This document shows, in pieces, positions 17,715 to 58,900 of a stretch of 64,000 nucleotides of DNA (within the stretch, counting starts at the first letter, position 1; each line of letters starts with the position of its first letter). The stretch comes from Psammoneis japonica (taxonomy: Eukaryota): NCBI GenBank assembly GCA_008632985.1, contig QPGO01000001.1, positions 1,086,404 through 1,150,403 of the forward strand, in the 5' to 3' direction. The notes beneath the pieces are model-generated. The model was not told the DNA's origin, did not search any database, and saw only the letters and a list, made by a program, of their open reading frames with translations. Both the position numbers and the translations under genes were made by a program.

Positions 17715-18000
17715 ACATGACTCACAAGATGGGTTTTGTTTGGCATCAATCTTCTCCACAGCTGTGCACAAACATGCCAGATTCATTGAAGCATGATTCA
17801 TGAGATGGGTTTCACTTTCCCCACATTGCTCTTCACCAGTCTTGCACAAAAATGCAAGTTTTGCTGCTGCAGCGCAACTCCCAAGATGGGTTTCATTCCC
17901 CACTTTTCTTCATCACTGGTCATGGCCAAAACCACTGGATTTATAATGTTGCAACTCACAAGATGGGTTTCACCCCCTGTTTCTCTTCACCAGCTGTGCT
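17715..18000. repeat. Degenerate tandem repeat of about 78 bp, 4 units
   Basis: Core agatgggttt at 17727, 17803, 17884 and 17961 with partly conserved flanks (actcacaag..., ctcttcaccag). Confidence 0.7.
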
Positions 18001-32500: not shown

Positions 32501-33153
32501 GAAGCAGAGTTTTGCGCTGCTGGCACTGCTGCCAAACATGCACCTTGCCTCCATCACGTGCCACATGACCCAGGCTTTTCTCAGATAAAGCCAACCCTTT
32601 CATGCATTGACAACAAATTGGCAATCAAGATCATCAATCACTTGATCCCGACCAAGCGCTCACGCCAGTCACATTGAGACCCAGTTTTTTGCAATCCAAG
32701 AATGGAAGGAGGCAGGCAAACTTGTCACAAGACATGTCCCTGGCATTGTCAATCCCAGCAATGACCTTGACAAGGCTCTTGGTTGGGCACTGCATGCTCA
32801 CCACGCTCAACACATGATGGGACACTGTCGTTGATGTTTTTTTCCATGATGGCCTCCCTGCTGCGGTGCATTGTCCCCTTGTTTGCTTGCGCATTGGGCT
32901 TGGACACTCACAGTGTCCTTTGGTCTCTTTGTTTGCATCATCCCCATTCTTTGGTTTGATCTGCACTGTTCTCCATCTTGAGATGTTGCAGATCAGGGGA
33001 GGGTGTCAGCCCATCTGTCTGGCTGTCGTGTGATGGACAGACTGTGTGCGGATGATGACCGGACCATTTAGACAGACGAGCAGATCTCTCTTAGATCCGC
33101 CTCTCACTTTCTCATCTGCTGGCACTCATGTTGTCACAGTCCCAGTGCTCTCA
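29532..33153 (+). mobile_element. Internally deleted degenerate Ty1/Copia element (5' gag fused to the post-integrase region, RT, RNase H)
   Basis: LTR pair at about 29532-29663 and 33004-33153; PPT aggggaggg; ALQGHPESG, CQVDDF, TAASSTEAEF, CIDNK. No PR or IN seen, no clear TSD. Confidence 0.85.
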
Positions 33154-34829
33154 AAGCAAGGAGCCAAGATTTGTGATGATTTCCATGCTTTGTCATTGGC
33201 AGACATGGGTGTGTGTGAACACTGCATCAAGAAGCTTGGTTGTTTTTGTTGCATCCCATTTGCACACATGCTGGTGAAAAACATCAATGTTGAACATTGC
33301 ATCCATTTTGCACCACAGTTGCCTTGTTGCTAAAAAAAAAAGGCACAGCAGTGCACAAGGCTCCACTTTGCTGGCTCCCATGCCTGCATTGTTTGTGGAA
33401 TGACTTGTGTCACTTCAAAAATGTTTTGCTCTGTGACCGGTGGCTGACTTTCTGATGTGCAAAATGACCAGTTCTCACACACTTGTGTGTTTCTCATTCA
33501 AAAGAAACAGAGTGCTTCAACATGTGTGCACATTGAGTGGCATGTGCTTTTATTTGAGTGAGAACCTTTGTGAAAATTGGCCAAAAATGAGCGCAGGACA
33601 AAACACGAGAGTTTGAAAAATGTGCTCTTTTGGCATTCATTGATTTGGGGGTGCTCCGCGCCCTCAATTCCTGCCAAAAGAACAGCCAGATTTGGCACAA
33701 AATGAAATGAAGATGTCGCCACAGGGCAAAGTGATGCAGACTCCTTTCCAAAAAGTGAGCAACTGAGACCAGAGGCAGCCAAATCTGGTGCTCATTTTTG
33801 GCAGGGTGGGCACAGCAAACTGCACAGCCAGAAATCCTGCTCTTCCAAACATGGAATGACCATCAAGGTGCAGCTGCCAAGGAGAAAGATGGTCTTGTTG
33901 CCAAGTTGAAAGGGGCTCACACTGAGCCCAGTCCAGCAATTTTGTCAACATCAACTGCAAAAGTGACTTTTGGCCTGAGTTGTTTTGTGTGAGCTTGATG
34001 CAAAAGATGTTGATGACAAGACATTGCAGTCTCACACTCAGAAGGCATGAAGGAGACCATCTTTGAGGTGGGGTCTCTGAGGGTGGTGGATGTGCTTCTC
34101 AAAATGCATGGTTGAGTGACATCAGAGTTGCAAAACCTTGGGTGGCAACTGGACTTGCAAAGCAGCACATGGGAAGGATGTGGCTGTTGTCCAGGAGGGT
34201 GACAACAAAAAGGAGAGGACACCATCACACCACAAGCACCACAACAAACTTGACAGCAGCTCTGTTGCTCTTCTTTGGGCCAAGCAGTGTGCCACTGAAC
34301 ATGCCCTCAAACGTGCCATCAGCAGCCCCATTGGCAGTGCAGCCAAGGCTCCAAGCAAGCAATTTGCCCTCATGAATGCTGTCACTTGCACACCAGCAGC
34401 TCCAGCATCATTGGGTTGCATTTGACTGTCATTGGTTTCAAAGCAGATGCTGGTGGGCATTGATGCTGATGGGATGTGGCTGTGCAGCTTGTTCAGACTG
34501 TTCTGGTTTGAGCCACTTCATGATGAGGAGCAAATGCCACACAGCACTGCTGCTGCTGGCCAACTGCAGCACCCGTTCTCAACCTGATGAGGAGTTGCTC
34601 AACCTTTCTTTGGTCTTGCAAGTCAGAGCAATGCAAGATTGATGGCGTGGTGTGGGAAATGACAGAAATCAAAGAAGATTTGGATTTTGATGGTCAACAT
34701 TCATGATGAATGAGGAAACAGTGAATGGCAACTGTGACAAATTGGCAGCACAAATGCTGACAGACCCATTCCTTGGCCAGGAACAGAAACCTGTCAGCAG
34801 ACTGACAATGGTTCATTCTGGTGCAAACA

Positions 34830-35551
34830 AAGTGGGCTTGGGTTCAAGGCACACCAACCAAGTGTCTCAGCCATCTGGGCATCTGAACATCCGGGCTTGC
34901 CATCACAGGCATGAGACCAGGCACTTCCACCTTGCCAGGCCAAAAACTGTTCCTGACCCTGGAACACTTGTCCCCATCATCAACAGGGGCACCTGCAACG
35001 GTCCCTGCATGGATGTTGTGTAGACAGCAGCAAGGTGTTGCACTGCAGGTCTGTGCCAGAGTTCTGCTTGCTGTGTCCACCCAATGCCATCAATGCCTGA
35101 ATGATGGAGACAAAACAGGAGTGAGTCACTCTTGTTCAAATCTTGCCAGGGAAGCAATGTGGCACTCAGCTTTTGGAGGCTGAACACACGTGCGGGCTTG
35201 GGCTTGAGTCACACCAACCAAGTGTCTCAGCCATCAGGGTGTCTGAACATCTGGGCATGCCATCACAGGCATGAGACCAGGCACTTCCACCTGGCCAGAC
35301 CAAAAACTGTTCCTGACCCTGGAACAGTTGTCCCCATCATTGACAGGGGCACCTGCAACGGTCCCTGCATGGATGTTGTGTAGACAGCAGCAAGGTGTTG
35401 CACTGCAGGTCTGTGCCAGAGTTCTGCTTGCTGTGTCCACCTGATGCCATCAATGCCTGAATGATGGAGACAAAACAGGAGTGAGTCACTCTTGTTCAAA
35501 TCCTGCCAGGGAAGCAATGTGGCACTCAGCTTTTGGAGGCTGAACACATGT
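34830..35551. repeat. 360-bp tandem duplication in degenerate DNA
   Basis: cacaccaaccaagtgtctcagcc...ggaggctgaacaca is repeated at exactly +360. Confidence 0.95.
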
Positions 35552-38500
35552 GCCTGCAATTCAAGTTTCCTGTGTGGTGGGTGCAACCATCATTCTTGAC
35601 AATGGCTGAGTTGTTGATGCTGCTGTTGACGGCTGTCAAAAAGAGTTTGATGTCTGGTGTTGCAAGACAAGAGTCACATCAGCTGGCAAAACAACAGCTG
35701 CTCAGTGACAACACCACACTGGCAAACAGCTGGAAAGTGCATTGTGCAATGCTCTGGCCAAATGGCAAACTCACACAATTGAGAATGATTGCATGTGGGT
35801 CCCACATGGAGTTTCGTGTGCAATCTGAGAAGAGCAAGACATGGTGTTTCTTGGGTGCATGTCAAGCAACAGGAGACTCCACCTCAGTGCATTGCTGCTC
35901 AACATTTGGTGCAACCCAACTCCAAAAAGAAGCCCACCATGTGCCTTGGTTGGCAAGGGCATGCATGGTTGCCCAGCTCTGGTGGACCCAGAAAACCTCT
36001 TTGACACAAGAGACATTGATGCCCCAACCTGGAATGGTCTCAAGACTCAAGAATGCCATGTTTGCTGCAGACATTGGCCCCATCATTTAACTGCCATGGG
36101 TTCATTGTCAGCAGGACAATGGGAAAGGAGGGCTGGTTGGCTGGCTTCCCATTGATTGCCACCTTGTCTGCTGTGAAAATGATGGCTGTGATCAAATCCA
36201 TGCTGATGACAAGGATTGCCCACCAAAGACAGCAAATGTGTGTCATGACATCATCCCTTTTTTGTGGGCCATTGCACTTCAACAAGATTCTGACACTTCT
36301 TGCTTGGAGTGCTGTGGCAGATCCAGCAACACCACTCCAGCATTTGGAGGAAATCCATGAATTTTGAGTCAAATCAAAACAACACAACCATGATGGCGCC
36401 AAAAACACAGTGAGCAACAATGCAACGCACCAAGGAGCTTCTGGCCCCACTGAGTTGTCAAGCCAAATCCAACCAGACTGCTCAGACAAACAGGAGTGTG
36501 CCAACACAAAGGTGAATGACTTTGTAAAACCATCAGACCACACTCAGCAGACACACCTTTTCACAGCATTCCTGTGCAGGGCCACAGCCTCCAATGAGCC
36601 ACATCTGACCTCACCAAGAAATTCTTTAAACAGCCATCAATTAAAGCCACTTGCACATCTGGGCTCAGCACACCCTCAAGAACCAGCTTGGCTGCATCAT
36701 CCAGGTGAAGCAAGGCATTGTGGTGGTGGCACTGGCAGGTGAAGTGCTCTGGGAAAGGAGCGGCTTCCCTTTGAACTTTGGTGTCCTCTTCTTGGCACCT
36801 CTCTTTGTCACCAAGGGAAATTTTGAGAGAGACTGCAACAGCGTGGACTGTTGGATTCACATGTCAAGAAACTTTGTGAACAGAAGCTGACACTTGGGTT
36901 TTGGGAGTGTGTCTCATGTCTGGGAATGAAAATCTGACAGACATCCGAGATGAGGAGCACACTCCCTTGTGCCAGACAGACTGGCACAGACAGTGCCAAG
37001 AGATCCAATGATCTCTCTCTGCTCACTTTCTTTCTCATCCACCGGTGGCACACGATTGTCATCTGTCCCAGATGCCAGTTAGATTGCCCCGATGCTGACA
37101 GTTTGCAAGGTTGTGAGCAGCAGGAGTGCGCTGTTTGTCTTCCTTGGCGCAACTGCGTTGCAACATTCACTGTGTGATTTGGCAAGGTTTCTCCGTTGAA
37201 ATCGTCATCTTTGTCACAGCCATTTTTCTCACTTGATTTGTGATCATCACGACCACCGTAGACCACATGCCAGTGCTCTGTGTGGGATTTTGATTTTTTT
37301 TTCCCATGCAACCATGGCACCAACTGAGCAAACTTCTGTCAATTTGACCAAGATCAAGTCGTTGCGGGTTGAATTCAGACCGCAAAATCACTTGCCTGAT
37401 GCCCATTCTTGCCTGAATGAACTTCATTCTGACATGACACCTGCTCCCAAAGATCTTCTGGATGGATTTGCTCCTCCAGCCCTCAAGCCCAACGCGTCAC
37501 AAGATTGTTCATGATCCAATCATCCCTCAGGCTGCCTTGAACAAGGACCTCAAATGGATTGGACCACTCATCAACAAAGCTTCTCTCTTTGTGGCTGCCC
37601 CTCAAGATGCTCCAATTTGTCTGAACCACACCATTCTTCAGAAGGCTGCGATCAAAGCAACCTCAGATGATCAAGACACCACAGTGCACATGTTGGGACT
37701 GTCAGTCTCTTCTTTCATCCTGGTTGTGAGAATTGTCTGTGTTGGGATGACATCTCTGACACCCCGCACCCAACATCCCCGTCTCCTCCAAGTTCTGCAT
37801 CTCAACTGGCAGCCACTGTAGTTCCGACCCCTGAAGATTTTGATGCTGAGGCCTCAGCTGCTCATTCACCTGGTCCAAAACAGTTTGAGCAAGCTGTGAG
37901 CAATGCATTGAAGACCTCTGCAGCTTCTGCACCACCTCCTGCACCTTCTGCCATGACTGCCACTGCTGTGGTTTCTTCCTTGACAACCACTGGTGCTGTG
38001 CACACCTTCAATCCAAAAGGACTTCCAAAGGATGCACTGGCTTGCTGTCAACGCAAGGAAGCTGGGAAAGTGGTGTCAGGGAAGTCACTGGCACCCCACA
38101 AGTCGGGAAATCTTTGCTGTGAAGACAGCACCGAATGCCTCATTCTTGCTGATGGTTCACTTTTTGTCCATTGCACTGATTGGGATGCTAAGTTGTTCCT
38201 TTGCAATCCCTTGACCTGTGACCACATCTCACCTCAAGGAATCCAAGCATGGCACACTGCAGCAACCCAACAAGCCTTGGCTTGTGGCACACACATGCAT
38301 CCTCTATGGTGTTTCATCAAGGATGGTGGAAACTGGGGCTTCACGAGTGGAAAGGACCCAACTGATGACCTGCCACTTTGCATGCGCGCGCTGCTTGACC
38401 GCATGAAGCTTGCACCATTTCAGTGCATCCAGAAGGTTGGGATTTTCCCAGCCAGTTCCAAGTGCCCCGATGTTGTTTGCCAATGCCATGGAGATGGACA

Positions 38501-40810
38501 TGCTGCCCTCAAGATGATCCCATTTGACATTCTTCCAATTTGGACTAAGCACCCGTTTGAACTGATCAAGAGCCACCCGCACCAGAACAATCTCATGATC
38601 CTAAGTCACTGAGCTCCATTCAGGGATTTCCTCCTGCTGCGGGCCATCATTTCCAACGTTGATGCCTCTCTTGATGATCCTGGTGAGCTGGATGTCTTTC
38701 TCAGCAACACCCAACATGGAGACCATCTGCACAGAAAGACGGTGGATGCTGGGGAAGACAAGAACAAGCAACACAAATTTGCTCAACAGAAGATTGTCAA
38801 ACGATTGCCATGATCCTCAAGGAACCAGACAGTCCTGCTCTTCATCTCAAGGACCCTCCCCAAGCACCCTGCGCGGTGTCTCCAGAACCAGAACCCGGCC
38901 AATCCTCCCCTTGCAGCTCCTCTTTAAGCCCTTGATTTGTCACCTAAAGACAAGGTGCCAGATCTGCCTCCAATTGTTGAGGAAACTCCAACGGAAAGCA
39001 ATCCTCCTCCTGCAGAAGAACCTGTGGAAACCATGGAGTGTTTTGTAAATGAGCTTGCTGCTGTGGAAATTCCTCTGGATGATGAGGCACAAGCACTGCA
39101 TGGTGTTCACAAAGCTTGCATCTACAGGATCAAGTTGTCACCCACCATTGCACAGACTTGACCATGCATTGTCTGTGGTGATGGCCACTTGTTCCATGAG
39201 TGCCCGGTCTTGAACAATGCTGAGCATCTACACACTTGTCTCATCTGATTCTTCCAATTCCTTCAATGTGACCAACGTGCCCAAGATGCACTTGAGGATG
39301 GCAAAACCAAAAAGGATTTTTCCTGGGGCCATTGTTGCGTTTGGACAAACAATGCTGCCCATCTCTTCCCAATCCAAAAACTCATGCAAGCGGGGCAACT
39401 GCAAAAGAGGGTCTAACAGACTCATTGCCTCCCACTGAAATGCCTCTTTCACATGTCTCATTCGCCAACCTTCTTTCAAACTTGTCGAAGGCCAGTGCTC
39501 TGGATCTCAAGACGATTGCAGATGATGACCCTGACACCAACAATCAGGAGAGGGGAACACCTTCTCATGAAGCCTTCATAGAAGAGACTGACATCCCCCC
39601 ATCCAGTGATCAAGACCAAGATTTTGAGCACCTTGACATGGCCACCAGCCAACACTTGTCACCTTTGAGTGCAGCACGCATCTCCCCAATTTTTTCTCCT
39701 CTGGAATCACCTGCAGTTTTTGAATCTTTGGCTGCTCCTGTCATCCCCATCAATCATGTGATGCATGATTCAACAACACACCACACACAAATTGATGCTG
39801 GTGCTTGGGCATCCTGTGCAGGTGACAAGCACCTCCTTCATGCCTGCACCCCATTTGGCCCAGACAATCCTTGTCCTTTGAAGATGCTCCCTGCTGCTGA
39901 AGGCTCTGACATGGTCCCTCATGGCTTTGGTCATTTGCAAGCACCTGCTGCAAATGCTGATGGTTTCCTTCTCATGCGCACCTTCCACCATCCCAGCCTG
40001 CGTTCCACCTTGATTGACAAACGCGACTTTACGCGGGCTTCTGGTTTTTGCACCAAAAACCATTTGCTCTGAGTCTCTTGAGAAGACTTGTGCTGATGGA
40101 ACTTGCACATTTGCTGCTTCGACTGATGCCCAAGAGGTGGTTGTCCATGGCATTCTCCGACATGGAAAGGTTTTTACCCAGCCCCCAGTCCCACCGTCTG
40201 TGAGCAATGCCTCTTTGACACCTGCAACACCTGACTCGACGTCGGTTGATGACATTGATGATGCATGCCAATGTGCAGTCTTCTGTGTCAACATTCAACA
40301 AACACCATCTGATCCTTGGATGACAGACACTGAGTTGTTTCCCATGCAATGCAATTCTGTTGCACACCCATCAACACCTTTGCCAAGTTCTGCCCCAGTC
40401 CGCTCTCTCACAGTCGAGACTGAACGTCTCCTTTGGCACCAATGCCTTGGACATCCCAGCGATCACTGTTTGTGTCATGCTCACAAGCACATCAAAGGGG
40501 TCCTAAGTTCTGCCATGCCAACCCAGTTCTTGACTGACAGGATTTGAACAGGATTTGGATGCGCGCGAAGTATCGCGCGCTGTTTAGTTTACCGCGCACA
40601 GTTTTGTGTGCTTTAGTTCCGCGCGTTCACGCGCGATGTAGTTTGCTTTCGAGCCACAAGGCTCACAAGAATAATAACAGTAGCCCGATTATACCGACTT
40701 ACCCGTCTTTCGGCTCCTGTGACGGTCTCTGAGCGGAGACTCATCTGCTATTTAGACAGCAGTAAGGAGTTATTGTTTGAATTCTTGCCATTTGCCTTCA
40801 ATTTCTGTCA

Positions 40811-40827
40811 GATTAACAGTCTTGCTC
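40811..40827 (+). promoter_or_regulatory. Putative primer-binding site complementary to a tRNA-Asn(GTT) anticodon arm
   Basis: gattaacagtcttgctc directly follows the LTR; its reverse complement GAGCAAGA-CTGTTAA-TC is an Asn anticodon loop with closing pairs. Confidence 0.6.
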
Positions 40828-41749
40828 ATTGTCAACCCATTGAGCAACCGCCATCGTCGTCGTTGATTTACCAACGACGCTATTTCAATTCTACGTGGAC
40901 CTCCGTATATATTCTACATACATCGGCAAGTCTACGCGCATTCAATACCAGGGCATCGGCAGGAAGTTAACGTCACCGTCAAGTCTCCTTACCGCTGGAT
41001 ATCTGGATTGATTATACCACCTTTGATCGCTGAAGACATACATTCAACGGTCATATCCAAGTCTATCCTTGATCCTCATCCCTTGATATACCTGTTCATC
41101 GGTTAACGGTCAAGAACCCTACATATTCAAGGATCTTCGTCGCTGAAGACATATATATATATACATGTCTTCACGGCCAAGAACCTGTACCCACTCTTCG
41201 GACTGCGGTTTTGCTGCCACTCTACAAGCACACCGAGTCCATTGTACCTGATCTACCCCGGACTACTGGTGCTCTACAGTTCCACTAGGTCCACGAGGAT
41301 GACTGTGAGAGCAAGCAGCCGTGATTGCAACCTGCGTTGGGGCGAGGGTGCTTTCCCGCGTTTGTTCGTTCGTCCACAGCGCCTGACGCCTGCGTCAACT
41401 GGCCAGCCTGATCGGGAAATCCAACCGACATAAAATAAGAACGGTTCGGGGGTCTTGTCCACCTCTGGTCAGCTCACCTGCAGGGGTTTACAACCCGCTG
41501 CTCCGCTCGCAAGCAACCCAAAGCGCCGCCAGCTGCGGGTTCGGACGTGCCGGCACAACTCTACGGACCGGATGGGAAGTTTAGCACTTGACAACGAACG
41601 GGATGACAAAGCCCGGCGACTTCTGATTTTAAGATGGTTCAAGATTTCAAGTCAAGTCCATTTCAAGTCAAGCCTGTTCTCACCCAAGTTTCGAGTCTGC
41701 CTTCGCTTCCCAACCCGAATTGATTGTCCTGACACCACTTTTGTCTGCC

Positions 41750-44700
41750 ATGGTTCTCACTCGTCAGCAACAAACCGATGGTTTCGAGCACGTTGTTGGA
41801 ACCGTGCTTGCCCAAGGTGCTGGGAGTCCTCTTCGTTTGGCTTTGGCCCAAGACAGCACAGACTCGCATCAGGAACTGTTCACGTTCACACCGTCCCAAA
41901 TCGACTCGCTTGAGTGCGACAACGGCACCAATGCAATCCCTTTGCCCCGTGGTTATAAGAACATGTCAGCAGCACCAGCTAGCCTGTGCATTGTCAAAGC
42001 ACACAAGGGTCTTGATGTTGCCAACAACTCCTCTTTGTTCACGCATGACGAGTTCCTTGCCCACTCGCCTCAGCCCGGACTGCATGTCCTCTGTGTCCAT
42101 CGGCAGCTCACCCCTTGCACCTCCACATGTCACCAACCCGACCAAGGCACGCGACCCGGTGCGAGACTTCAAGCGAGGCATCAAGCGTGATCCCACCGCT
42201 TTCACGGCTCTCAAATCCGACAAGCAGTGGCACACTTGGCACACCTCACTTGTGGCACAAGCCCGTGCCCAAGACGTCGAGTGCATTCTAGACTCGTCGT
42301 ACAAACCGACCAGCCCCGAAGACAAACTGCTCTTCACTGAACAGCAAAAGTGCATGTTCGCCGTCTTCGAACGCATCCTTCTCACCGACAAGGGCAAGGC
42401 TCTCATTCGCGAAAATGTGGGGTCTTCTGACGCACAGACCGTCTGCCGCTCCTTGTCTGAGTGCGCGCTTGCCTCCACCCGTGCATCTGTCGAGTCCTCC
42501 ACCCTGCTCACGCACCTCACCACCGCACGTCTTGGTGATGGCACTTGGAAAGGCCCGACCCACGGGTTCATCCTTCATTGGCAAGATCAGTTGCGCAAGT
42601 GCGAGGTGCTCATCCCTGCCAGTGACCACTTCTCTGAAGGACAGAAGCGCGTCATGCTCGAGAATGCCGTGCACCCTGTCGAGGAACTCCGTGCTGTCAA
42701 GAACCAAGCTGATCAGCACCGTGCGCAGAGTGGCAAGAGCCTCACATGCGATCAACACTGTGGCTTGCTCCTCTCCGCGGCAGCTCAGTGCGACAGCACA
42801 TTTCAACCCAAGACGACACCCAGAGCTCCCCGACGCGCCATGTGCGCACACGACGTCTACTCCGAGGAACCGTCCGACGATGTGTTCTACGACATTGACA
42901 GCGACGTTGACGTCCTTCAAGCCAATGCTGCCTGCACCCGCGGTCCCAGCCTCACCGGTGTCCAATGGAGACGTCTCCCTCCCGACCACCAACGGCTCTG
43001 GGATTCGTTGCCCGATTCCTCCAAGGCGATCATCCTTGAGCATTCTCGTCCGCCTCCCCGCAACCCGCGAGCCAGCAACTGCCATGAGTCTGTTACGGCC
43101 AACCTTCACGACCAACACCTTGGGAGTGACGGTGATGTCAACTTGTCCAACACGACTCCTGCTGACTGTGGTGACCCCGCTGCACATGTGGACGCCACTT
43201 CGGACAATCCCATCCTGGCGCACCTCACCAAGCGCAAGCCACTGCCACCCGGTGATCTGCAACGTCTGTTGTCTCCTAACCAAGCCCCCAATGCCAGTCG
43301 ACCGGGGCCATCCGCCGCTTCCTCTACCCCGCCAGCTTCTGCAGATAACACAGAACTTAACGGCCGCACTTGCCGCCGCGTTAACAACCACAATGTCATT
43401 TACTCTGCCTCTGCTCATCGCTCCACACGCACTGGCGCTCTAGTCGATCGTGGGCCAACGGCGGCATTGCTGGCGACGACGTTCGCGTCATCGCACGCAC
43501 CTCTCGCCAAGTCGACGTTCAGGGCATTGACGATCATCAATTGGTGGACATCCCCATTGTCACCGCTGGTGCCGTCATTGAGACCCAGCGTGGTCCCGTC
43601 ATCGCCATCCTCCATCAGTGCGCATGCACGGGAAAGGGCAAGACCATCCATTCCTGCGGCCAGCTCGAATGGCACAAACAGGATGTCAACGATCGCTCTG
43701 TCAAGGTGCCCAACGGCTTGCAACGCATTGCCACTCCTGATGGCCATGTCATCCCCATTGACATCAAGGCTGGCCTGCCTCATGTTGCCATGCGACCTTG
43801 CACTGACGCCGAATGGGACACCCTGCCCCATGTCATCCTCACCGGTGATGACACATGGGACCCTTCCGTCCTCGATCACTCTGTCACTGACGACGACCAG
43901 TGGTGCGACGCGATCTCTGACCTGCAGGACGATCCCACTGCCAACCCATTTGACGAATGCGGCAACTGCCGTCACCGTGTCGTTGTCAACGAGACCATCT
44001 TGTCCGCTTCCTTGTCTGCCGATCACGCGTCCGCCCTCGATGATCACCTCATTCCGAACGACGACGTGTTCTACGAGTGTCATCTGCATGCGATTGACCC
44101 CCAGGGCGATGACGTTCCACCTCCGGAGCGCACTGTACAGCCCAAGGACCCCCCCTTCGAGTCTCTTCGGCCTCACTTTGGCTTCCTACCTGCCGATGCG
44201 GTCCGTCGTACTTTTGACTGCACCACGCAGTACGCCCGCATGCCCGCCGGTACACACCTTCGCAAGGCCTGCAAATCACCCAACCCCGCCCTTAATGTGC
44301 ACCGCCGCAACGAGCCCATCGCCACTGACACCGTTTGTGCCGACACCCCGGCCGTCGACTCTGGTTGCACCAGCGCCCAACTGTTTGTTGGCACCGCGTC
44401 TACCGTCACTGACGTCTACGGCACTAAGACGGACAAAGAGTTTGTCAACACACTCGAGGATCAGATCCGTGAACGTGGTGCCCCATCCAAACTCATTAGC
44501 GACCGTGCTCAAGTTGAGATCAGCAACAAAGTGCTCGGGATCCTACGCGCCCTCTTCATCTCCAGCTGGCAAAGTGAGCCTCACCAGCAACACCAAAACT
44601 TTGCCGAGCATCGACACCAGACCGTGAAGCGCATGGCGAACACTGTCATGGACCGTTTTGGTTCACCCGCCCACACATGGCTGCTGGCGCTCATGTGCGT

Positions 44701-47420
44701 GTGCTTCACACTCAACCACACAGCGTCCCCACGTCTCCACTGGCGCACGCCCCTCGAGACTCTCACTGGATCCACCCCGGACATCAGCCCATTGCTTCGC
44801 TTTCACTGGTGGGAACCAGTGTGCTTCCACCTCGATGATTCCGATTGGCCGTCCGAATCCCGTGAGTTGCGTGGACGCTTCGTTGGCATTGCTGAGCACG
44901 TCGGCCACCAGATGACCTTCAAGATCCTATCTGACGAGACTCAGAAGATCCTCTGCCGGTCCAACGTTCGCTCCGCTACCCCCGATCCTGCCGTTCGAAA
45001 CCTGCGTCTTGATCCTCCTGATGGGGAGCCACCTGAACCCATCATCAAATCTCGCCATGACGACAACCCCGTCGATTCTCCTGATGGGGAGATCAGGACA
45101 CCCAAGATGCCAGTTTTCGATCCGCAAGACATCATTGGACGTACCTTCCTCATGCAGCCACAAGAGGACGGACAACGCCACAGAGCTCGCATCGTCAAGG
45201 CCGTCGAAGACCACGAATGGAAAGTGAACAGCAATCCCGAGCTCACTAAGTTCGTCTGCTCTGTCAACAATGACGAATGCGAGGAAGTCCTTGCCTGCAA
45301 TGACATCATGAATCACATTGAGCAAGAAGACGAAGACACCACCATTTGGAAATTTCGACGCATCGCATCACACGAAGGACCTCTGAAGCCTCACGACCCA
45401 ACCTGGAAAGGCTCAAGCTACAACATCATGCTTGAATGGGAAAGTGGGGAGATCACGTCCGAGCCTCTTGCCATCATCGCCAAGGACGACCCCGTCACCT
45501 GTGCCATCTGTGCACGAGAGAACGGACTCCTAGACACGGATGGCTGGAAGCGGTTCCGCACTATCGCGAGGCACCAAAAGAAGCTATTTCGCATGGCCAA
45601 CCAAGCCAAGCTTCGCTCCTTCCGCACTGCACCTCGCTACAAGTGCGGATGCGAAGTTCCCCGGAACTACAAACACGCCATGTCACTAGACGAACGCAAC
45701 GGCAACCGCAAGTGGGGAGACGCAACTAATCTCGAGATGGACCAACTCGACGAATACGAAGTCTTCCATGACTGCGGGCCCTTCAAGTCTTCCACTCCTC
45801 CTGCGGGACACAAGAAGATCCGAGCGCACCTGGTGTTCGACGTGAAACACGACGGTCGCCACAAGGCACGACTCGTAGCCGACGGGCACCTCACGGACGT
45901 ACCTGTCGACAGTGTCTACTCGGGGAGCAGTCTCCCTCCGTGGCCTTCGGCTGATGATTTTCCTGGCCGAACTCAACGAGCTGGAGACATGGGCCACCGA
46001 CATTGGCAATGCCTGCCTTGAAGCCACCACCAAGGAGAAGCTTTACATTGTAGCTGGACCCGAATTTGGCAAACTCGAAGGACACATCCTTGTCATCCAC
46101 AAGGCACTGTATGGACTGCGCAGCTCCGGTCTCCGCTGGCACGAGCGCTTCGCCGACTGCCTGCGAGCTGAAGGCTTCTTCCCCTGCCGCACCGAACCCG
46201 ACATTTGGATGCGCAGGAACGGCGACCACTGTGAATGCATTGGCGTTTATGTGGATGACCTCGCCATTGCCATGAAAGACCCTCAATCTTTCATCGACAC
46301 TCTCACGGAAAAGTGCAAGTTCAAGCTCAAGGGTGCAGGACCCATTGAGTTCCATCTGGGTTGCGACTTTTCCCGGGACCCCGACGGAACCTTGTGCCTG
46401 TCTCCGCGCAAGTACATCGAGCGCATGGTCGACAGCTGCGCCCGATTGTTTGGGGAGAAACCTGCCACCAACGCCCTGTCACCTCTAGAGAAGGGTGACC
46501 ACCCCGAACTGGACACTTCCGAACTGCTGGGACCCGATGGCATTCACAAGTTCCAGTCTCTTGTTGGTTCACTCCAATGGGCAGTGTCCCTTGGTCGAAT
46601 TGACATCACCACGGCTGTCATGTCACTCTCTAGCTTCCGAGCTGCACCCCGTCAAGGCCACTTGGATCGTGCCAAACGCGTCTGTGGGTGCCTCTCCAAG
46701 ATGCGACACGGTGCTCTCCGCGTTCGTACGGAAGAGCCCGACTGTTCGGATCTCCCTGCTCCGGCCTGTGAATGGATGCATTCCGTGTATGGTGAAGCAG
46801 AAGAGATGGTCCCGAAGGACGCTCCACCGCCCCTTGGCAAGTTCGTCACTACCACCCACTGCGTCGATGCAAACTTGTACCATTGCATGCTCACCGGACG
46901 CTCTGTCATGGGAATGCTCCACTTCCTCAACAAATTCCCGGCTGATTGGTTCTCCAAGAAACAAGCCATCGTGGAGACTGCAACCTGCGGATCTGAATTT
47001 GTTGCCGCAAGGAATTGTGTTGAGCAGATTGTCGACCTGCGCATCACCCTGCGCTGCCTTGGCGTCCCGATCCGTAATGTCAGTTGCATGTTCGGTGACA
47101 ACAAGTCGGTTGTAGACAGTGCCACCATCCCGCACTCCAAGTTACACAAGCGACACACCGCACTGTCGATCCACCGTGTGCATGAGGCAATTGCCTCTGG
47201 TCACCTTGAGTTCCACTTCATCGAAGGCTCCCGCAACCCTGCTGACATTCTCAGCAAGCATTGGGGTTGCTCCCAAATCTGGGACCTTCTCCGCCCCCTC
47301 ATGTTCTGGAACTTCATCCCATCCGAAGTCGAATCTGTTTCTGTAGCTCCTCAAGCAAACTGGGGAGTGACAGGATTTGAACAGGATTTGGATGTGCGCG
47401 AAGCATCGCGCGCTGTTTAG
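41750..47420 (+). pseudogene. Copia gag-pol polyprotein; three 1-nt frameshifts (about 42065, 43452, 45925), no internal stops, many Tyr->Cys/His changes
   Basis: FKRGIKRD (gag), LVDRG/ANGG (PR), ATDT..SDRA..FAE (IN D-D-E), HKARLVADG, KALYGL, VYVDDL (RT), VDANL, GSEF, GDNKSV, NPADILSK (RH). Confidence 0.93.
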
Positions 47421-50400
47421 TTTACCGCGCACAGTTTTGTGTGCTTTAGTTCCGCGCGTTCACGCGCGATGTAGTTTGCTTTCGAGCCACAAGGCTCACA
47501 AGAATGACAACAGCAGCCCGATTATGCCGACTCACCCGTCTTTCGGCTCCTGTGACGGTCTCTGAGCGGAGACTCATCTGCTGTTTAGACAGCAGCAAGG
47601 AGTCATTGTTTGAATTCTTGCCACCTGCCTTCAATTTCTGTCATTGACATTTGCCCCATGTGCATCCAAGCAAAGCAAGTCAAGACACCTGCTGGACCAA
47701 ATTCAACTTGAAAGGCAACTCAACAGAGCATCAAGGCCTTGCTGTGGATTTTGCTTTTGCCGGTCAGGCATCCAAGAATGAAGAATGCATGTCTGATTGT
47801 CTTGGCTGCAATGGTGAAATGTGTTGGATCACTGTCTACGACCACAAAACACGCATGCTTCATGGTGTTGCACGGATTTCTGAAGCCAGCCCTCTCAAGT
47901 GGCTTTGCCGATTTTTGGATCAACACTTGCCGAATTGTCATGACAAATGTGTGTTGGTGGACCAAGGTGGGGAATTGCACAAGAATCCCAAAGTTTGTGA
48001 CCTCTTTGAACAAGAATTCCAGCATGACATTTGTCCATCTGGTGCTGGCATGTCCAATCAATGCAACCCTGTTGAACGCTCACATTTGACTGTTGAGAAT
48101 GTGATTTGTGCAATTTCAATCGGCGCCAACCCCCCGATCAGATTCTGGCCCAGTGCTTTTTACCATTGCCTCCGTGTTAAGAATGCCACTCCTGCAAAAG
48201 ACCAAGATGCATCTCCTGTCACCCTTGCAACTGGGAAGGTTGAAGATTTTACTTCCTTGAAGACTTTTGGATGTTGAGTGTGGGCCAAATGGTCCACAAA
48301 ACGCTCTGCCACCTTCTGCTCCAATTCCAAGAAAGGTGCATTCCTTGGATGTCTCCAGAACACCCTGAAGAATGTTCTTTGGTGGGATCCAGAGACTGAC
48401 AAAGTCAAGACAGCCAAACATGCATGACATGACGAGGGCATGAATGACCTGTCTTTGGACCAACTTCTTCGAATGCCACCCAGTTGCAATGCATGGAAAA
48501 TGGCCAGCCTTTTCTGGCTGAAATGCAGGACACAACTGCTCCAATGTTTGCCTCTTCATCAAATCCTTTTGCCAACTTGCACCATGAAACGTCCTCCCAT
48601 GGACCCCACCCATGGTTTTGTTTTCTCCCAGTGCGCTCTCATGGACCATGACTGTGTCTCGGAAATCAAGCAGCGCAGTCCCGCGGCCTCCTTGTTCTCC
48701 TCTCTCCGTGCTGCTCAGAACAAGCTCATGGGTGCACACGTTATCTCCATCAACAAGCACAAAGTCTTTGCACCACAAGATGCTGAAAAAGCACTCCTGC
48801 AGGTCCACTGTGATGAGATTCCCACCTTTGAGATTGTTTTTGCACCTGAACGACATCTGGACCCTCGCACTCTTAATGAGGCTTTTGAGGAAGTGGAGTT
48901 GTTTGACCCTGATTCAAAGGAGGATGATTCCCATGTGCCTGAACTCAATTTGGAGGATGTGCGATCCATTGCAGCTGTCCTCCACCCTGATGATGATTTC
49001 TCTGATGAAGCTGTTCCAACAGATGTCTTTTGTGCTCATCTTCATGCTGTCAGTTCCCGTGCTGTCACTCCGGAAGAAGCTGCTCTTGATTGTCTTGCCC
49101 GTGCCAAGCTCCATAAACTTGAAACATGGCCGGAATGGGAAGAAGGAGAAAAGCGTCAATTGGACCAATTTTGCGCACTTGGTGTGCATGGTCCCCCGCA
49201 ACTGTGCCCTCCTGGAGTGAACGTCATGCATCCGCATTGGGACTGTGTGGCAAAACCAGATGGACAATGCCGTTCTCGACAATGTGGAGACGGACCCAAG
49301 TCAGCTGTGCCAGCGTTGCACAAACTGACTCCACGCATTCTTTGTGTGTGGAACGCTTGATCAAAAAGATGTTTTTTGCTCTCAGTGCTGCCATGTCCCA
49401 TTGAATTTTTGGCGGTGATGCCCGAGATGCACATGCTCATTCTGCTGGTCCTTCACAGCCGGTGTTTGTTGCCATTGATGATGCCTGTGCTGCATGGTGT
49501 GAAAGTCACTTTGGCATGAAAGCACCCCGCCATTGCATCCTCCCGCTTGAGCATGCTCTCCAAGGCCATCCCGAGGCTGGTGTCCTGTGGGAGAAGCACA
49601 TCAATTTGATTCCAGCCAGTGTGAAACTCCTCTTCTGCTGCACTGCTCATGACAAGTGCATCTGCTCTGGTGAATGTGATGGTGTCAAGGTTCTGTCACT
49701 CCATCAAGTTGATGATTTTGCACTTGCTTGTCCTTTGAGAAGATTGCAAAAGAGATCCATGATCACATTGGAAAGGCTCTCCAGATGGAGAATGAAGATG
49801 CTCCTCCGTTCAAGCATTTGGGCCCAGTCACCGCATTCAATGGTGTTGATGTCATTTAGAATGATGATTTGATTACAATCAACATTGCCAGCTGCCTTGA
49901 TTGTGTCTTCAAGACCCATGGATGGGATGCTCCTGCTGCAAATGAAACTGACACTGACTTCAAGGCTGCGCCTGTGCCGGTTGATTGCATTGCTGAGCTG
50001 TGTGCTGCTGAAGGCCCCGAGGAGGGCACTCCTGAGCATGATGCCCTTTCTGACTCCCACGGCTTTTCCTGCCACTCTGTCTTGGGTGAGTTGGTCTTTG
50101 CTTGTCAGTGTTGTTGCTTGGACATTGGCTGTCCCATTGTTGCCTTGTCCAAGTTCTCCAAGGCTCCGGCTGATGTCCACTGTGATTCTCTCAAATGCAT
50201 GGCTGAGTGTCTGCAGCGCACCAAAAATTGGGGTTTGACACACAAGAAGACTGAACGTGATCCGGGTCTGCCTCCCCATGACTTTGAATGGCTTGAGGAT
50301 GATCCATCCCTTCCTGGCTTCCCCCATGCTGATGATCCTTTTCAACTCCTTGGTTTTGTCAATGCAGCACATGCCAACGAACTGTGGCATCGTCAATCCA

Positions 50401-52958
50401 CTGCTGGATGTGCACATGTCCTTGCTGGTGCTGCAGTTGATTGTCGTTGCTGCACACAGACCATTGCAGCCACCAGTTCCACCAAGGCTGAATTTTTTGC
50501 AGCTGTCACTGGTGCGAAGCAGACCTTGCACCTCCGAATGGTCCTTGAAGAGCTGGGCTTTCCTCAATGTGACCCTGCTCCCTTGCACATTGACAACTCC
50601 TCCACCATCCAGATGATCAACAACAAGGTGCCTGCAGAGCGCTCCTGCCACATTGACACTCATCATTTTGTGATCCAAGACTGGCGGAAAATTGTCACAA
50701 GACACATCCCGGGTGTCATCAACCCTGCTGATGTGCTGACCAAGGCTGTGGGCTGGACACTCCATTCCCACCACACCTGTTGTCTGATGGGACACTGCCA
50801 TTGTTTGCCATTTTGTTTGTGTCTGTCTCTTTGTTCTGCTGTTCTGGTCCTCATTTTTTCTTCGGATTGTCTCCTTTCTTGATGAGCTTTTGCATTGCTC
50901 ATCAGGGGAGGGTGACAGACATCTGAGATGGGGAGTGCACTCCCTTGTGTCGGACAGACCAGCACAGACAGCACCAAGAGATCTGATGATCTCTCTCTGC
51001 TCACTTTCTTTCTCATCTGGCACATGATTGTCATCTGTCCCAGACACCAGTCAGATCGTCCCGATGCCGACAGTCTGCAAAAATCTCCCGTGCCAAGAAC
51101 CACTGAGCTTGTGTTCCTGTTTGCACTTGAGACTGGAGCTTTTGACTCATGTGGAGGACTGGTTTTGTTGGGCCATTGGGTGATGCTCTGTTTGGCAATG
51201 CAGTGCATCAGAAGTTGGGTGCTTTCTTTCCAATGACTTTGGCCACAGCCCAGCTTGTTTGTCAGTCTAAAAATCTTGGGCACACTCCAGAACAAGCACA
51301 AGTGACAGGGCCACTGAAAATTTGTGGTGTCATGGTCTTGGCTGCTCAAAAATTGTGCTTGCATCCATGGCAATGTGCAGCTGTCAAGTTGCTCAAAGAA
51401 ATGCAACAAAGCTGCCTTCTCTTTGTGTGCCGTTGACATCTCTTTGGAGAGAGGGGTGACTTCTTGAGTGAGTCTCATTGCTTTGCCATGACAGCGCTGC
51501 TCTGACAAGAAATTCTCTTCTTTTGTTTGAAAATGCATGCACACATGTGTTGCAGATGTGACTCTTGACACACACTCTAGCCTCAGGTGGGACTTCACAT
51601 GACAGCAGCCAACAAAATTCTGTGCACAAGCTCTGCAGGTCTCGCTCTCTTGTTTGCAGGTGCATTTGTCCATGCACCACTCTAATGAGACTTGAGAGTG
51701 GTGCACAGAAAGTGTCAAAAGTTGTTGAATGGACAGCTTGACAACTGCGCTGCAAAATGACACCAAGCTCTGCCAAAGCCACGCAGAAGTGTGCATGTGG
51801 GGCAAAGGGAAAAGACAAAAAACTGTTGACATGTCACAGCTCAGCAGTGCAAGGCCCCTCCCAGAGCTGGAGCTCATCTCTTGTTCTTTGTCATTGTGGC
51901 TTTCTGCACCTTCCCTCATTTTGTTGCGCACTCAAGGCACGCACAGTTGGCCGCCAGTCATTTGCTGGTGTGCACTGCAGCCAAAGGAAATGTGATTGTG
52001 ATTTGATCTCAGTCTTTTGTGAGGCCCAACTCAAAAACATTTGTCCTTGGTGATGCTCGTCAATGTTGTCACATTCAAATGTGATTTTCGGGTGTGTCAA
52101 TTGCTTCAGAGACATGTCCTGCACAATTCATGAAGAGCCACACCTGCGAAGCTGGACGGTGCCAAATTGTGCGGGACATCCCGCGATCAATCGGGCATTG
52201 GGCGTGCTGTCGCTTCTGTGGTTGCGCGTTGGTCCCGGAGCATCAACAGTCATTGTCAAAATGACCAATCGTTTCGGAAATGTCAGTGTGACAGGCATTG
52301 GGCACATGTATGCACTCGTGATTTAGAAGAATAATGCTGCACTTAGAACCCATGCGACAATTTTGGTAAGACAAACATGCTTGCGTAGTCGTAGATGTGA
52401 TGTCAGTAACGGCGAAACTAGCCATAGGGCTTATGGCTTACTTTCTTTGGTGACTGTGCGACCATCATGAGAAAAAGGGTGGTTTCTTGGTAATGACCGC
52501 CTAAATGACCTTTGAAACATCGCCAACATCCTCGGATTTATGTCAAGAGTCATTGTGTAGTCGTATGAACTGCTGACTCTTCGTGGTCGCTCGTATTGGG
52601 CTACGGGATTTCTTTTTTTTTGAAGTCATCTGTCCGAGCGCCGGTCACAAAATCTTTTCACACGAAAACAATAACGCACACAACTTCTTTCACCCGAAAG
52701 AGTTTGATCGAGTGTGAGATTGACCAAGTGTGAGTGAAAAATGGAGTTTTGTGGTTTAAATGAAAAGGTTTCTATGTTGGACATGATACCTGTTCTTCTC
52801 AGCCGCTAGGGAAACATACTCGCTTCAGAAATGGGCCTTTTAGCTCTTGAAAACCACGGAGTGTCTTCTTATCCTCAATTTCTCTCTTTGTTTCCCCGTT
52901 TTTTTTTTCGACAGGAATTGAATATTTACAACAGATATCAGAGGCATAGATTGTGACT

Positions 52959-55900: not shown

Positions 55901-58900
55901 GGATACCACGCCCCTGGACTACAACCCCGCCATCACTCTGGAAAAGACGGTTATGTTAGGATGGGATAAATCATGCGAAAACGACGAGAGCTTCAAGTCA
56001 TTGGGAGTACCTCCGGATGCCAATGTAACATACTGTTTCTTGGTCACTAACACAGGGAACACATACTTATCAAGGTTTGGATTGAAGGACACTGACATAA
56101 TTTTTTCCACTTCCAGCCAAGCTGTGCAAAAACCAGGAGAATCTTTCTACTTTCAAGCGGAAAGAACAATGGACGGAGACCTGGTGAACACCGCGACAGC
56201 TTCTGCTCGCGCAGTTTACAGTGATGGAACGACCATTATCGAGGGCAAAGACGAAGTGAAAGACACGAGCACCGCAAGCATTACAGATTCGACAGCAGCC
56301 CCGTCAACGTCGGTCAGGCCAAGCGACACGCCGTCAGCAGTCCCGTCAATGTCGGTCAAACCAAGCGACGCACCGTCAATCTCACCCTCGACAGCGCCGT
56401 CGGCGGTTCCCAGTGATATACCCAAGGCTCCAAGCGACGCGCCTTCACAATCGCCATCGTCGGCGCCGAGTGCAATGCCGTCAGATGATCCAGCAGGTTT
56501 TCCATCAACGACGCCATCAGGCATGCCAAGCAACGCCCCGTCAATCGCTCCCTCGACAGTACCGTCGGCGGTCCCCAGTGATATACCCAAGGCTCCAAGC
56601 GACGCGCCTTCACAATCGCCATCGTCGGCGCCGAGTGCAATGCCGTCAGATGATCCAGCAGGTTTTCCATCAACGACGCCATCAGGCATGCCAAGCAACG
56701 CGCCGTCAATCGCTCCCTCCACAGCACCGTCAGCGGTCCCCAGTGATATAACCAATGCTCCAAGCGACGCGCCTTCACGATTGCCATCATCCGCACCGAG
56801 TACAATGCCGTCAGATATCCAAGTAGGTGTTCCACCAACGGCGCCATCAGGCATGCCAAGCAACGCGCCCTCTACAGTACCGTCGGCGGTCCCCAGTGAT
56901 ATACCCAAGGCTCCAAGCGACGCGCCTTCACAATCGCCATCGTCGGCGCCGAGTGCAATGCCGTCAGATGATCCAGCAGGTTTTCCATCAACGACGCCAT
57001 CAGGCATGCCAAGCAACGCGCCGTCAATCGCTCCCTCAACAGCACCGTCGACGGTCCCCATTGATACAACCAAGGCTCCAAGCGACGCGCCTTCACGATC
57101 GCCATCATCCGCACCGAGTACAATGCCGTCAGATATCCAAGTAGGTGTTCCACCAACGGTGCCATCAGGCATGCCAAGCAACGCGCCGTCTACAGTACCG
57201 TCGGCGGTTCCCAGTGATATACCCAAGGCTCCAAGCGACGCGCCTTCACAATCGCCATCGTCGGCGCCGAGTGCAATGCCGTCAGATGATCCAGCAGGTT
57301 TTCCATCAACGACGCCATCAGGCATGCCAAGCAACGCGCCGTCAATCGCTCCCTCAACAGCACCGTCGACGGTCCCCATTGATACATCCAAGGCTCCAAG
57401 CGACGCGCCTTCACGATCGCCATCATCCGCACCGAGTACAATGCCGTCAGATATCCAAGTAGGTGTTCCACCAACGGCGCCATCAGGCATGCCAAGCAAC
57501 GCGCCGTCTACAGTACCGTCGGCGGTTCCCAGTGATATACCCAAGGCTCCAAGCGACGCGCCTTCACGATCGCAATCATCCGCTCCGAGTGCGATGCCAT
57601 CAGATAACCAGGTAGGTGTTCTACCAGGAGTTCCATCAACGATGCCGTCAGGAAGCCCAAGCAACGCGCCTTCATTCGCACCCTCGACAACGCCGTCAGC
57701 GGTCCCCAGTGATACAACCAAGGCTCCAAGCGCCGTGCCATCGACGTTGCCATCAAGTCAACCAAGCAATGCGCCATCTACGACACGTTCTGCTGGGCCA
57801 TCATCAGTTCCTACTGCAGCTCCAAGAGATGCACCATCTGCAAATCCGTCGACCGCACCTAGCGCAGCTCCAAGTAATGCGCCCTCTACAACTCCCTCGG
57901 CCCAACCAAGTTCGGCTCCAAGTGATGTGCCCTCCACAAGCCCGTCTGCAGTTCCAAGCACAGCTGAAAGTGACACACCATCAACAGCTCCATCATCCGA
58001 ACCAAGCAAGGAGCCACCTTTGGTGCCTTCAACAAAACCATCTGAGATTCCATCGGCCATTCCAAGCTCGTTGCCATCTTCCGAACCCAGTGCTGTTCCG
58101 TCTACTATGACTTCCACGGTTCCCTCAACAAGCCCATCAGCGGCTCCGAGCGAAGCACCAAGTCATAAACCGTCGACGACTCCATCCGATCTCCCATCAG
58201 TTTTGCCATCAACGGCACCAAGCGTAGCTCCAACGAGCTCCCCAAGCACTCGACCAGTGCTGTCGATTGAGATCGTAACACTTACCAATGGGACAGACGG
58301 ACTAGAAACCAATTACAAAGATCTAGTCACATGGACATATGCAGTTGCGAACACGGGCAATGTAGCTCTATCAAACGTTAACGTCACGGACAACATGGGA
58401 GTCACACCAATTTATCGACATGGCGACGTCAACAATAACAACAAGATTGACTTAGATGAAACGTGGGTGTTCGAAGCAAATGGAACAGCTCAATCAGGAA
58501 TATATAACAACACCGGGTTCGTCAATGCAGATTTCGACGGACAGCCAGTGAACAACTCGGACCCTTCGTCTTATTTTGGCGTGAATGCATCGATCTTGAT
58601 TGACACAGTTACCAATGGTTACGATGGATTGGACATCGATAAGGGGAAGAACGTGACGTGGAAGTACACAGTGACCAATACAGGCAACTTTGAACTGTCA
58701 AACGTTACTGTAGAAGACAGCGTAAGGGGTGCGATCACCAATCGAGTTTCGGGAGATTCAGACAATGACGGAAAGCTTGATCTGGATGAAACGTGGATCT
58801 TCGAGGACTACGGGATCGCACAAGTCGGCGTCTACAACAACACCGGATCGACCGAGGCTACAGCGAATGGAGAGAAGGTTGACGATTCCGACCCCACATC

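Follow-up and report, generated by a model that had tools for sequence, protein, structure and literature searches.

How a retrotransposon can lose most of its conserved tyrosines while its reading frames stay free of stop codons is the question raised by a stretch of 64,000 nucleotides from Psammoneis japonica (NCBI GenBank assembly GCA_008632985.1, contig QPGO01000001.1, positions 1,086,404 to 1,150,403 of the forward strand), the whole of which we call the window and whose own numbering is used for all coordinates below. The element in question, element X, is a long terminal repeat (LTR) retrotransposon at 40535-47643. Its interior (41750-47420) had been described in an earlier note, made from the letters alone, as a retrotransposon inactivated by systematic replacement of tyrosine with cysteine or histidine rather than by stop codons. 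We consider it very likely that X, a Ty1/Copia element, was struck in DNA after its integration by a transposon-targeted and context-specific hypermutation that converts 5'-TAY-3' (Y being a pyrimidine) into TGY. The changes noticed in X are real, but X is one local and mild case of a process that extends across most of the window. The finding is confirmed as strongly non-random, and it represents a new instance of a recently described genome defence, not a new category.

The loss of tyrosine is best appreciated against the relatives of X. A homologue search gave 1685 proteins with E<=1e-3 among 8000 scored candidates, and from the best 120 of these we kept as intact relatives the 70 that are single-ORF (open reading frame) polyproteins of 1800-2000 aa, dropping the other 50. 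X was aligned to the 70 as three separate fragments, and columns with a residue in fewer than 35 of the 70 were dropped, leaving 1753 of the 1879 X codons scored. At the 29 columns that are at least 90% tyrosine in the relatives, X has 8 Tyr, 16 Cys, 3 His and 2 Phe; when columns with at least 50% tyrosine are included (n=59), it has 14 Tyr, 29 Cys, 8 His, 6 Phe, 1 Ala and 1 Trp. The other 19 residue classes are 84-100% retained in X at columns conserved to at least 90%, with no loss among Trp (21/21), His (22/22), Ala, Pro, Ser and Glu, and with Thr kept at 21 of 25 and Val at 29 of 33 positions. Arginine codons had been described as largely intact, and indeed 39 of 43 conserved arginines persist; three of the changes in X are Arg to His, with codon CAY. 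Altogether 45 residues of X depart from the consensus among the 571 columns conserved to at least 90%, and Tyr to Cys or His accounts for 19 of the 45; altered columns make up 21 of 29 for tyrosine vs 24 of 542 for the others (Fisher p=1.1e-19).

The eight motifs that had been read as tyrosine-derived are all present in the window and align with a tyrosine-bearing consensus of the 70 relatives: HQCACTGKG with HQYA..GKG, AEHRHQTVK with AERRYQTVK, CAICAREN with CAIYARDN, RYKCGCEVP with KYKYGFEVP, GNACLEA with GNAYLEA, ETATCGSEF with ETATYGSEF, LRCLGVP with LRYLGVP, and KHWGC with KHWGY. A further motif, YSGAVSLR, had been taken to reflect a GTA to GCA change; the codon at 45927 is indeed GCA where 97% of the relatives have valine (YSGVVSLR), but the motif straddles a frameshift in X.

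The direction of these changes follows from a codon alignment of X with eight intact-ORF relatives taken from metagenome contigs. Where a relative has TA within a codon, X reads TG in 32-51 cases, CA in 6-14 and TA in 10-19 (ranges over the eight relatives); where X has TA within a codon, the relative reads TG in 1-6 cases and CA in 0-2. Such a strong asymmetry upholds the polarity of TA to TG or CA that had been argued independently of the LTRs. Where the earlier note had allowed for active members of the family bearing Cys or His at the same positions, intact-ORF relatives carry tyrosine. That the family natively uses Cys and His is hence scarcely credible, the 70 intact relatives and 46 of 49 environmental loci having retained Tyr, and we give the same negligible weight to GC-biased gene conversion or a general drift from AT to GC: the GC content of the X interior (0.56-0.59) does exceed that of its surroundings, but the changes are confined to TAY, codons without TA are retained to the extent given above, and the same blocks of the window lose GC at CpG.

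The timing of the changes can be read from the two LTRs, which in any retrotransposon are identical at integration. Those of X differ at 12 of 276 positions. At nine of the 12 the 5' LTR has TA and its 3' counterpart CA (6) or TG (3), at one they have CG and TG, respectively, and two are of other kinds; TA sites are changed in 9 of 15 cases vs 3 of 246 for other positions (p=7.7e-11). As the LTRs were identical at integration and now differ at TA sites, the changes in X arose after integration, at the DNA level and on both strands, and editing of RNA before reverse transcription cannot explain them. A-to-I editing of the transcript (ADAR/ADAT-like), fixed by reverse transcription, would nonetheless accord with the excess of TG over CA outcomes on the coding strand of X, and A to G change after a 5' U resembles the ADAR preference, a likeness taken up also in the Discussion of a preprint on Bigelowiella natans (10.64898/2026.01.13.699255). 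We judge such an origin quite improbable. Besides the nine TA differences between the LTRs, T to C change on the sense strand is common, comprising 6 of the 9 LTR events, 9 His vs 14 Cys in the neighbouring element Y, and Cys to His ratios of 7:6, 7:6 and 7:4 in three environmental loci.

The trinucleotide context bears on the same issue. We pooled 66 sites of known ancestral TA, namely 51 tyrosine codons and the 15 LTR sites, and scored each adenine by its 3' neighbour: 29 of 64 opportunities were edited before C, 11 of 24 before T, 5 of 19 before A and 1 of 25 before G (pyrimidine vs purine, p=2e-4). The TA dinucleotides that remain tell the same story, with 110 left in 36.9 kb of heavily mutated, or saturated, transposon blocks vs 650 in 19 kb of normal DNA. 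Tetranucleotides presenting TAY on both strands have practically vanished from the saturated blocks (ATAT 0 vs 36 in normal DNA, GTAC 0 vs 67, ATAC 1 vs 83), those presenting TAR (R, purine) on both strands persist (TTAA 17 vs 11, CTAG 11 vs 19, CTAA 24 vs 52), and the contrast between the two classes is very strong (p=6e-22). The target is thus 5'-TAY-3', with A changed to G, and it is because of this target that tyrosine codons are the main casualty; the earlier remark that TAY is the codon class that cannot avoid the target was right and understated, TAY itself being the preferred trinucleotide. A bias toward the coding strand of X, suggested by 29 Cys vs 8 His, was considered and set aside: where both strands offer TAY the ratio is 12:5 (p=0.14), and in Y and the environmental loci it is about 1:1. 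The excess of Cys over His, and with it the surplus of TG outcomes that RNA editing might have claimed, is largely a product of the TAY context; moreover TAG, the least edited context, is the opposite of what the 3' G preference of ADAR would predict.

The absence of stop codons follows directly from the spectrum. A change that never yields T or A cannot create a stop and removes TAA and TAG. The density of TAA plus TAG on both strands is 4.4 per kb in saturated blocks vs 28.7 in normal DNA, and that of TGA 53.7 vs 40.1 per kb. The loss of TAA and TAG, with none created, accounts for the 40 ORFs of at least 80 aa that overlap 9.5 kb here. Five database proteins related to the X polyprotein (P0239, P0253, P0255, P0194 and P0153) contain 0-0.7% Tyr and 2.6-5.9% Cys, and are probably hypermutated dead copies that were called as genes, stops being scarce. 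X itself has no stop in its frame pieces of 558, 823 and 498 codons, as had been claimed; two changes of frame, which the earlier note did not mention, separate the pieces. The closest relative (P0002, 74% identical over the reverse transcriptase, RT) matches X by tblastn in frame 3 at 42102-43469, in frame 2 at 43454-45925 and in frame 3 at 45924-47324, and X therefore has two frameshifts. Inactivation through tyrosine missense, confirmed as far as the loss of tyrosine goes, is accordingly not the sole lesion of the element. The frameshifts could be assembly errors; read contigs with other copies of the family show a 1-nt indel difference exactly at both sites.

These reads come from four runs of one sample, which may be the source of the assembly, and were used for comparison between copies only. 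Among the 40 best-supported of 234 differences between copies, 6 adjacent pairs read CA in X and TG in other copies, and one reads TG in X and CA in the others. Different copies of the family were hit independently.

The signature also occurs outside this assembly. Scanning metagenome contigs with the RT piece of X gave 49 related loci. In 46 of them the observed-to-expected ratio (o/e) of TpA is 0.52-1.02, and the conserved tyrosine columns hold at most one Cys and at most one His per locus. The remaining three, L011, L029 and L030, have TpA o/e of 0.31, 0.27 and 0.13, with CpG at 0.74-0.80, and at conserved tyrosine columns show 7 Cys and 6 His of 22, 7 and 6 of 16, and 7 and 4 of 15, respectively. 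Their residual TA falls in the class with TAR on both strands in 13 of 26 cases in L029 and 6 of 13 in L030, vs 16.5% in the other loci, and in 12 of 49 in the less mutated L011. L029 and L030 are two copies sharing 94.5% identity; among the 93 positions at which they differ, 40 lie in 20 CA/TG doubles, 26 are TA vs CA or TG, 8 are CG vs CA or TG, and 19 are of other kinds. We note that six other loci (L005, L014, L037, L045, L046 and L048) have CpG o/e of 0.13-0.27 with normal TpA and intact tyrosines, so that the one kind of decay can occur apart from the other.

With three of 49 metagenome contigs sharing the signature, an artefact of this assembly is very unlikely. A sequencing or assembly error, for instance miscalling at modified bases, would fit changes that are substitutions only, and no library type is recorded for the runs; but the signature is present in the three contigs, which belong to other assemblies, and in the tyrosine-poor database proteins, one read run (X1) contains 68% of the sampled 31-mers of the stretch exactly, and a read contig crosses the junction between Y and X with 0 differences. 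We therefore regard this explanation as very remote.

Within the window, a 1-kb profile assigns 36.9 of the 64 kb (~58%) to transposon blocks with TpA o/e of 0.03-0.07, CpG o/e of 0.19-0.34 and CpA plus TpG o/e of ~1.8-2.0. By dinucleotide composition the saturated blocks are 1-8250, ~10850-12050, 14750-20200, 22500-40530 and 47644-52300, and their residual CpG is richest in the contexts GCGC, CCGG and CCGC. Four blocks of host genes have TpA o/e of 0.46-0.59 and CpG of ~1.0; they contain a Rab-like exon, an ankyrin-like gene, a GT49 glycosyltransferase (411 aa) and a giant DUF7507/DUF11 repeat protein, and the host genes are long uninterrupted ORFs. The borders between transposon and gene blocks, at ~8300, 10850, 12050, 14700, 20200 and 52300, are sharp to ~50 bp. 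Across the 64 kb, TpA hypermutation is confined to mobile DNA and host genes are spared.

X is the mild case. Its hypermutated part, 41600-47643, has TpA o/e of 0.09-0.33 per kb, with ~60-70% of TA sites gone, and CpG is normal at 0.8-1.05. The mutated interior is patchy, with 0 TA in the 500 bp at 43501-44000 and near-normal density at 43251-43500, 44001-44500 and 45501-46250.

X was inserted into an older Copia element, Y, which makes up the DNA on either side and whose gag_pre-integrs match (40014-40544) is interrupted by X. The left half of Y lies at 36935-40529 (plus strand), with a probable LTR at 36935-37108, TpA o/e of ~0.07 and CpG of ~0.3; the right half, likewise saturated, lies at 47649-51080 (plus strand) with a probable LTR at 50913-51080. 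The relatives of X are only ~27% identical to Y, for which a homologue search of its own was made (20 matches, 15 of at least 1200 aa used). None of 27 conserved tyrosines is kept in Y; the columns hold 14 Cys, 9 His, 2 Phe, 1 Ser and 1 Trp. Arginine is kept at 13 of 39 conserved columns, with 10 Cys, 6 His, 2 Gln, 2 stops and 5 Lys among the others. Threonine has become alanine at 11 of 34 columns, and all 11 codons are preceded by T vs 1 of 17 kept threonines, as the same TA change produces when its T ends one codon and its A begins the next. Kept Ile, Lys, Met and Asn codons in Y are never preceded by T. In a relative of Y (P0271) the Pfam domain order is gag_pre-integrs, SH3_retrovirus, RVT_2.

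In four other pairs of repeats in the window, nearly all differences are transitions among CG, TA, CA and TG, with 3-7 adjacent CA/TG doubles per pair. The saturated blocks also contain two-copy tandem duplications at 34834-35553 (360 bp, 95%) and 24503-25028 (263 bp, 93%); as the differences between their copies are mostly CA/TG doubles and CG/TG changes, duplication took place before hypermutation ended. At 22240-27888 an LTR-like pair, 82% identical, flanks a minus-strand RVT_1 element, and the repeat beside the gene block (22240-22414) keeps TA and CG where the other (27714-27888) has CA and TG. The idea that the 5' LTR is always spared was rejected, since this element is on the minus strand and its spared LTR is the 3' one; there is no general rule.

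The host gene at 55953-64000 contains at least 8 tandem 660-bp units (DUF7507/DUF11) that are 96-98% identical, and with TpA o/e of ~0.6 it is not hypermutated. Its 4.8-kb repeat sets differ at 75 positions, of which 7 are of the TA type and 2 form the one CA/TG double. Near-identical tandem units have thus gone unhit, and duplication alone is not the trigger. This gene also has a Pro/Ser-rich repeat array, with an ORF of 2019 aa followed by ORFs in other frames up to the end of the window.

The classification of X rests on its structure. Repeat search, blastn and alignment gave raw direct repeats at 40532-40810 and 47365-47643, the limits of which were refined from the junction letters: the 5' LTR (40535-40810, plus strand, 276 nt) begins with TG, is normal in TpA and has the 15 TA sites considered above, and the 3' LTR (47368-47643, plus strand) ends with CA. 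The 5-bp target-site duplication TTGAC is perfect, with copies at 40530-40534 and 47644-47648 (plus strand), and was read at both junctions. The leader from LTR to gag ATG (40811-41777, plus strand) is normal in TpA up to ~41600 (5-17 TA per 200 bp), after which TpA falls; the almost unmutated 5' kilobase of X sits between the saturated DNA of Y and the mutated interior of X. The gag part of the polyprotein (41778-43451, plus strand, window frame 3, no stop) includes the tblastn match of residues 118-582 of P0002 on 42102-43469. It is followed by the first frameshift relative to the intact relatives (43451-43454, frame 3 to 2), by the mid-pol part (43454-45922, plus strand, frame 2, no stop), comprising the presumed protease/integrase region and the start of RT and the first four motifs listed above, by the second frameshift (45922-45924, frame 2 to 3), and by the RT/RNase H part of pol (45924-47420, plus strand, frame 3), which contains the other four motifs and ends with TAG at 47418-47420. 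A Pfam search of the three long ORFs of X matched RVT_2 on 45912-47420 (E=4.7e-20) and no family on the other two, and no integrase family was matched on the middle ORF or on P0002 at E<=1. In P0002, an intact relative of 1859 aa, RVT_2 spans residues 1338-1554, and the location of RT, within the final third of the polyprotein, agrees with the Copia order. X is hence a Ty1/Copia LTR retrotransposon, with direct LTRs bounded by TG and CA, a 5-bp target-site duplication and RVT_2 all present; the CoDi label that had been given to it we take as presumptive, X being classed here on its Ty1/Copia features alone. A single read contig (depth 47.5) links 40529 with 47644, where 5 letters match either flank, and represents an empty site without X, in either another copy of Y or an allele lacking the insertion.

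The spread of decay to CpG in the older blocks, and the resemblance of these blocks to methylated DNA, call for consideration of a passive route, in which a modified base at TpA in silenced transposon chromatin (5-hydroxymethyluracil, 5-formyluracil or methylated adenine) mispairs or is misrepaired. TA being palindromic, A to G and T to C are indistinguishable from the spectrum. Further, 5-formyluracil mispairs with G. In dinoflagellates an enzyme forming 5-hydroxymethyluracil reportedly silences transposons (PMC11572971). On the other side, TAY in X has changed far faster than CpG (9 of 15 TA sites in the LTRs vs one CpG change, with interior CpG still normal), and the process goes near completion in the saturated blocks. 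In B. natans only certain lines display it, according to the preprint's main text, and it looks regulated (10.64898/2026.01.13.699255). A passive origin seems to us unlikely, if less so than the other alternatives.

We therefore favor an active, transposon-targeted conversion of TAY to TGY, which on the opposite strand appears as RTA to RCA. TA being palindromic, each site ends as TG or CA, and a single hit removes the target. Tyrosine codons (TAY) become TGY (Cys) or CAY (His), GTA, ATA and T|ACN codons are also altered, and TAA and TAG are destroyed with no new stops created, so that a dead element stays open-reading. X would represent an early and patchy stage with CpG untouched, and the older elements around it a saturated one, in which most CpG has also been lost to TG or CA. 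The most likely chemistry is one in which a TadA/ADAT2-like enzyme deaminates adenine in DNA to inosine, the route suggested for B. natans. It is also possible, though we hold it somewhat more doubtful than probable, that a TAY-strict adenine-editing defence of DNA is widespread in aquatic microbial eukaryotes and no peculiarity of Bigelowiella; it would recognise transposons and viruses through a feature other than their duplication, act in bursts after integration, saturate before CpG decays, and leave behind stop-free and tyrosine-free "ghost" ORFs, taken for proteins by gene callers. The natural tRNA substrate of TadA has a UAC-like context, and the TAY rule, if this reading is true, would point to the enzyme.

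Several observations weigh against this interpretation. The first 1.07 kb of X (40535-41600, comprising 5' LTR and leader) has hardly been mutated, though equally repeated, and tyrosine survives at 9 of 17 sites between 45400 and 46450 vs 5 of 34 elsewhere in X (p=0.007); the process is patchy at its early stage, and the pattern fits no model. The contrast in residual contexts sets transposon DNA against gene DNA, which are unlike in composition. Reads that may come from the source of the assembly are not independent support for it. The loss of CpG in the older blocks could be due either to the same process or to ordinary decay of methylated CpG. The deaminase is proposed by analogy and from the spectrum, and the manner in which transposons would be recognised is likewise conjectural. 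Finally, that the process in the window belongs to an organism other than B. natans, and hence to a second lineage, is probable on indirect evidence: the 411-aa host glycosyltransferase matches no database protein at more than 45% identity, its best match being from an MMETSP transcript, a search with the GT49 gene gave only generic eukaryotic clusters, and the host genes are long uninterrupted ORFs, whereas B. natans has intron-rich genes and a publicly available proteome.

The two well-known hypermutation defences against mobile DNA, fungal repeat-induced point mutation (RIP) and vertebrate APOBEC, both act by cytosine deamination. The same spectrum as in B. natans has here an effect on LTR retrotransposons like that of RIP in fungi, and it recurs in three environmental contigs. 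Our results add saturated LTR-retrotransposon targets, proof of action after integration, the TAY rule, insensitivity to mere duplication and environmental occurrence, as well as an order of events, with TpA lost first and CpG later. The requirement for a 3' pyrimidine narrows the search for the enzyme. There are also practical consequences: affected elements mimic long ORFs and enter databases as tyrosine-free "proteins", and dating by LTR divergence is badly inflated in such elements, 9 of the 12 LTR differences of X being of the TA type.

Set beside known systems, the process resembles RIP as known from Neurospora and other fungi, which likewise causes post-insertion transitions in DNA, is dinucleotide-specific and patchy, inactivates its targets and can saturate them. 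RIP, however, turns CpA into TpA, with lower GC and new stops as the outcome, whereas the present process eliminates TpA, raises GC and takes stops away; it predicts an excess of TpA, in contrast to the extreme depletion of the affected blocks; and it hits any sufficiently long duplication, whereas the 660-bp tandem units of the host gene are spared. APOBEC3 shares the deamination-type editing and the clustered transitions that kill retroelements, but it acts on minus-strand cDNA before integration, producing C to U and hence G to A on one strand, whereas the changes here are A:T to G:C, on both strands and after integration. Decay of methylated CpG resembles the change of CpG to TpG or CpA in the older blocks, where arginines of Y have become Cys, His, Gln or stop; it leaves TpA alone, in contrast to X, with its advanced loss of TpA and intact CpG. 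Hyper-editing of double-stranded RNA by ADAR shares the A to G change and the preference for 5' U, as discussed also in the preprint (10.64898/2026.01.13.699255). It differs in that its substrate is RNA and a 3' G is favored, whereas in X the divergence between the LTRs took place in DNA, and no context resists more than TAG; fixed by retrotransposition, it would be expected to leave edits common to both LTRs and A to G on the sense strand only, which is not what X displays.

The closest counterpart is adenine-directed and so far comprises, as presented in the text of that preprint, one rhizarian alga and two viral insertions (10.64898/2026.01.13.699255); our literature search, with most subscription journals outside its coverage, found no other report of hypermutation from TpA to CpA or TpG, and a term search of Maumus 2009 on CoDi elements (PMC2806351) found nothing on such hypermutation in the text searched. 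In the B. natans mutation-accumulation lines, according to the preprint's text, 231 of 302 new mutations lay in integrated giant-virus and virophage regions, all but one of the 231 being A to G or T to C and these all on TpA, at a rate of ~6e-7 per site per generation and in only some lines; TpA-poor coding sequences were enriched for reverse-transcriptase and DDE domains, and its authors propose an ADAT2-like DNA adenine deaminase and liken the process to RIP (10.64898/2026.01.13.699255). The preprint's main text uses none of the words trinucleotide, context, retrotransposon and CpG, and the TAY rule, the timing from LTRs and the later loss of CpG are therefore, as far as that text goes, additions made here. 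The likeness is nevertheless close, as both systems change A to G or T to C at TpA, yielding TpG or CpA, in foreign DNA only and with host genes normal (10.64898/2026.01.13.699255). What sets them apart is the target and its extent: as given in the preprint's text, the B. natans process has mildly affected single-copy viral insertions (Rho TpA 0.45), whereas in the present window it is LTR retrotransposons that have been brought to a TpA o/e of ~0.05.

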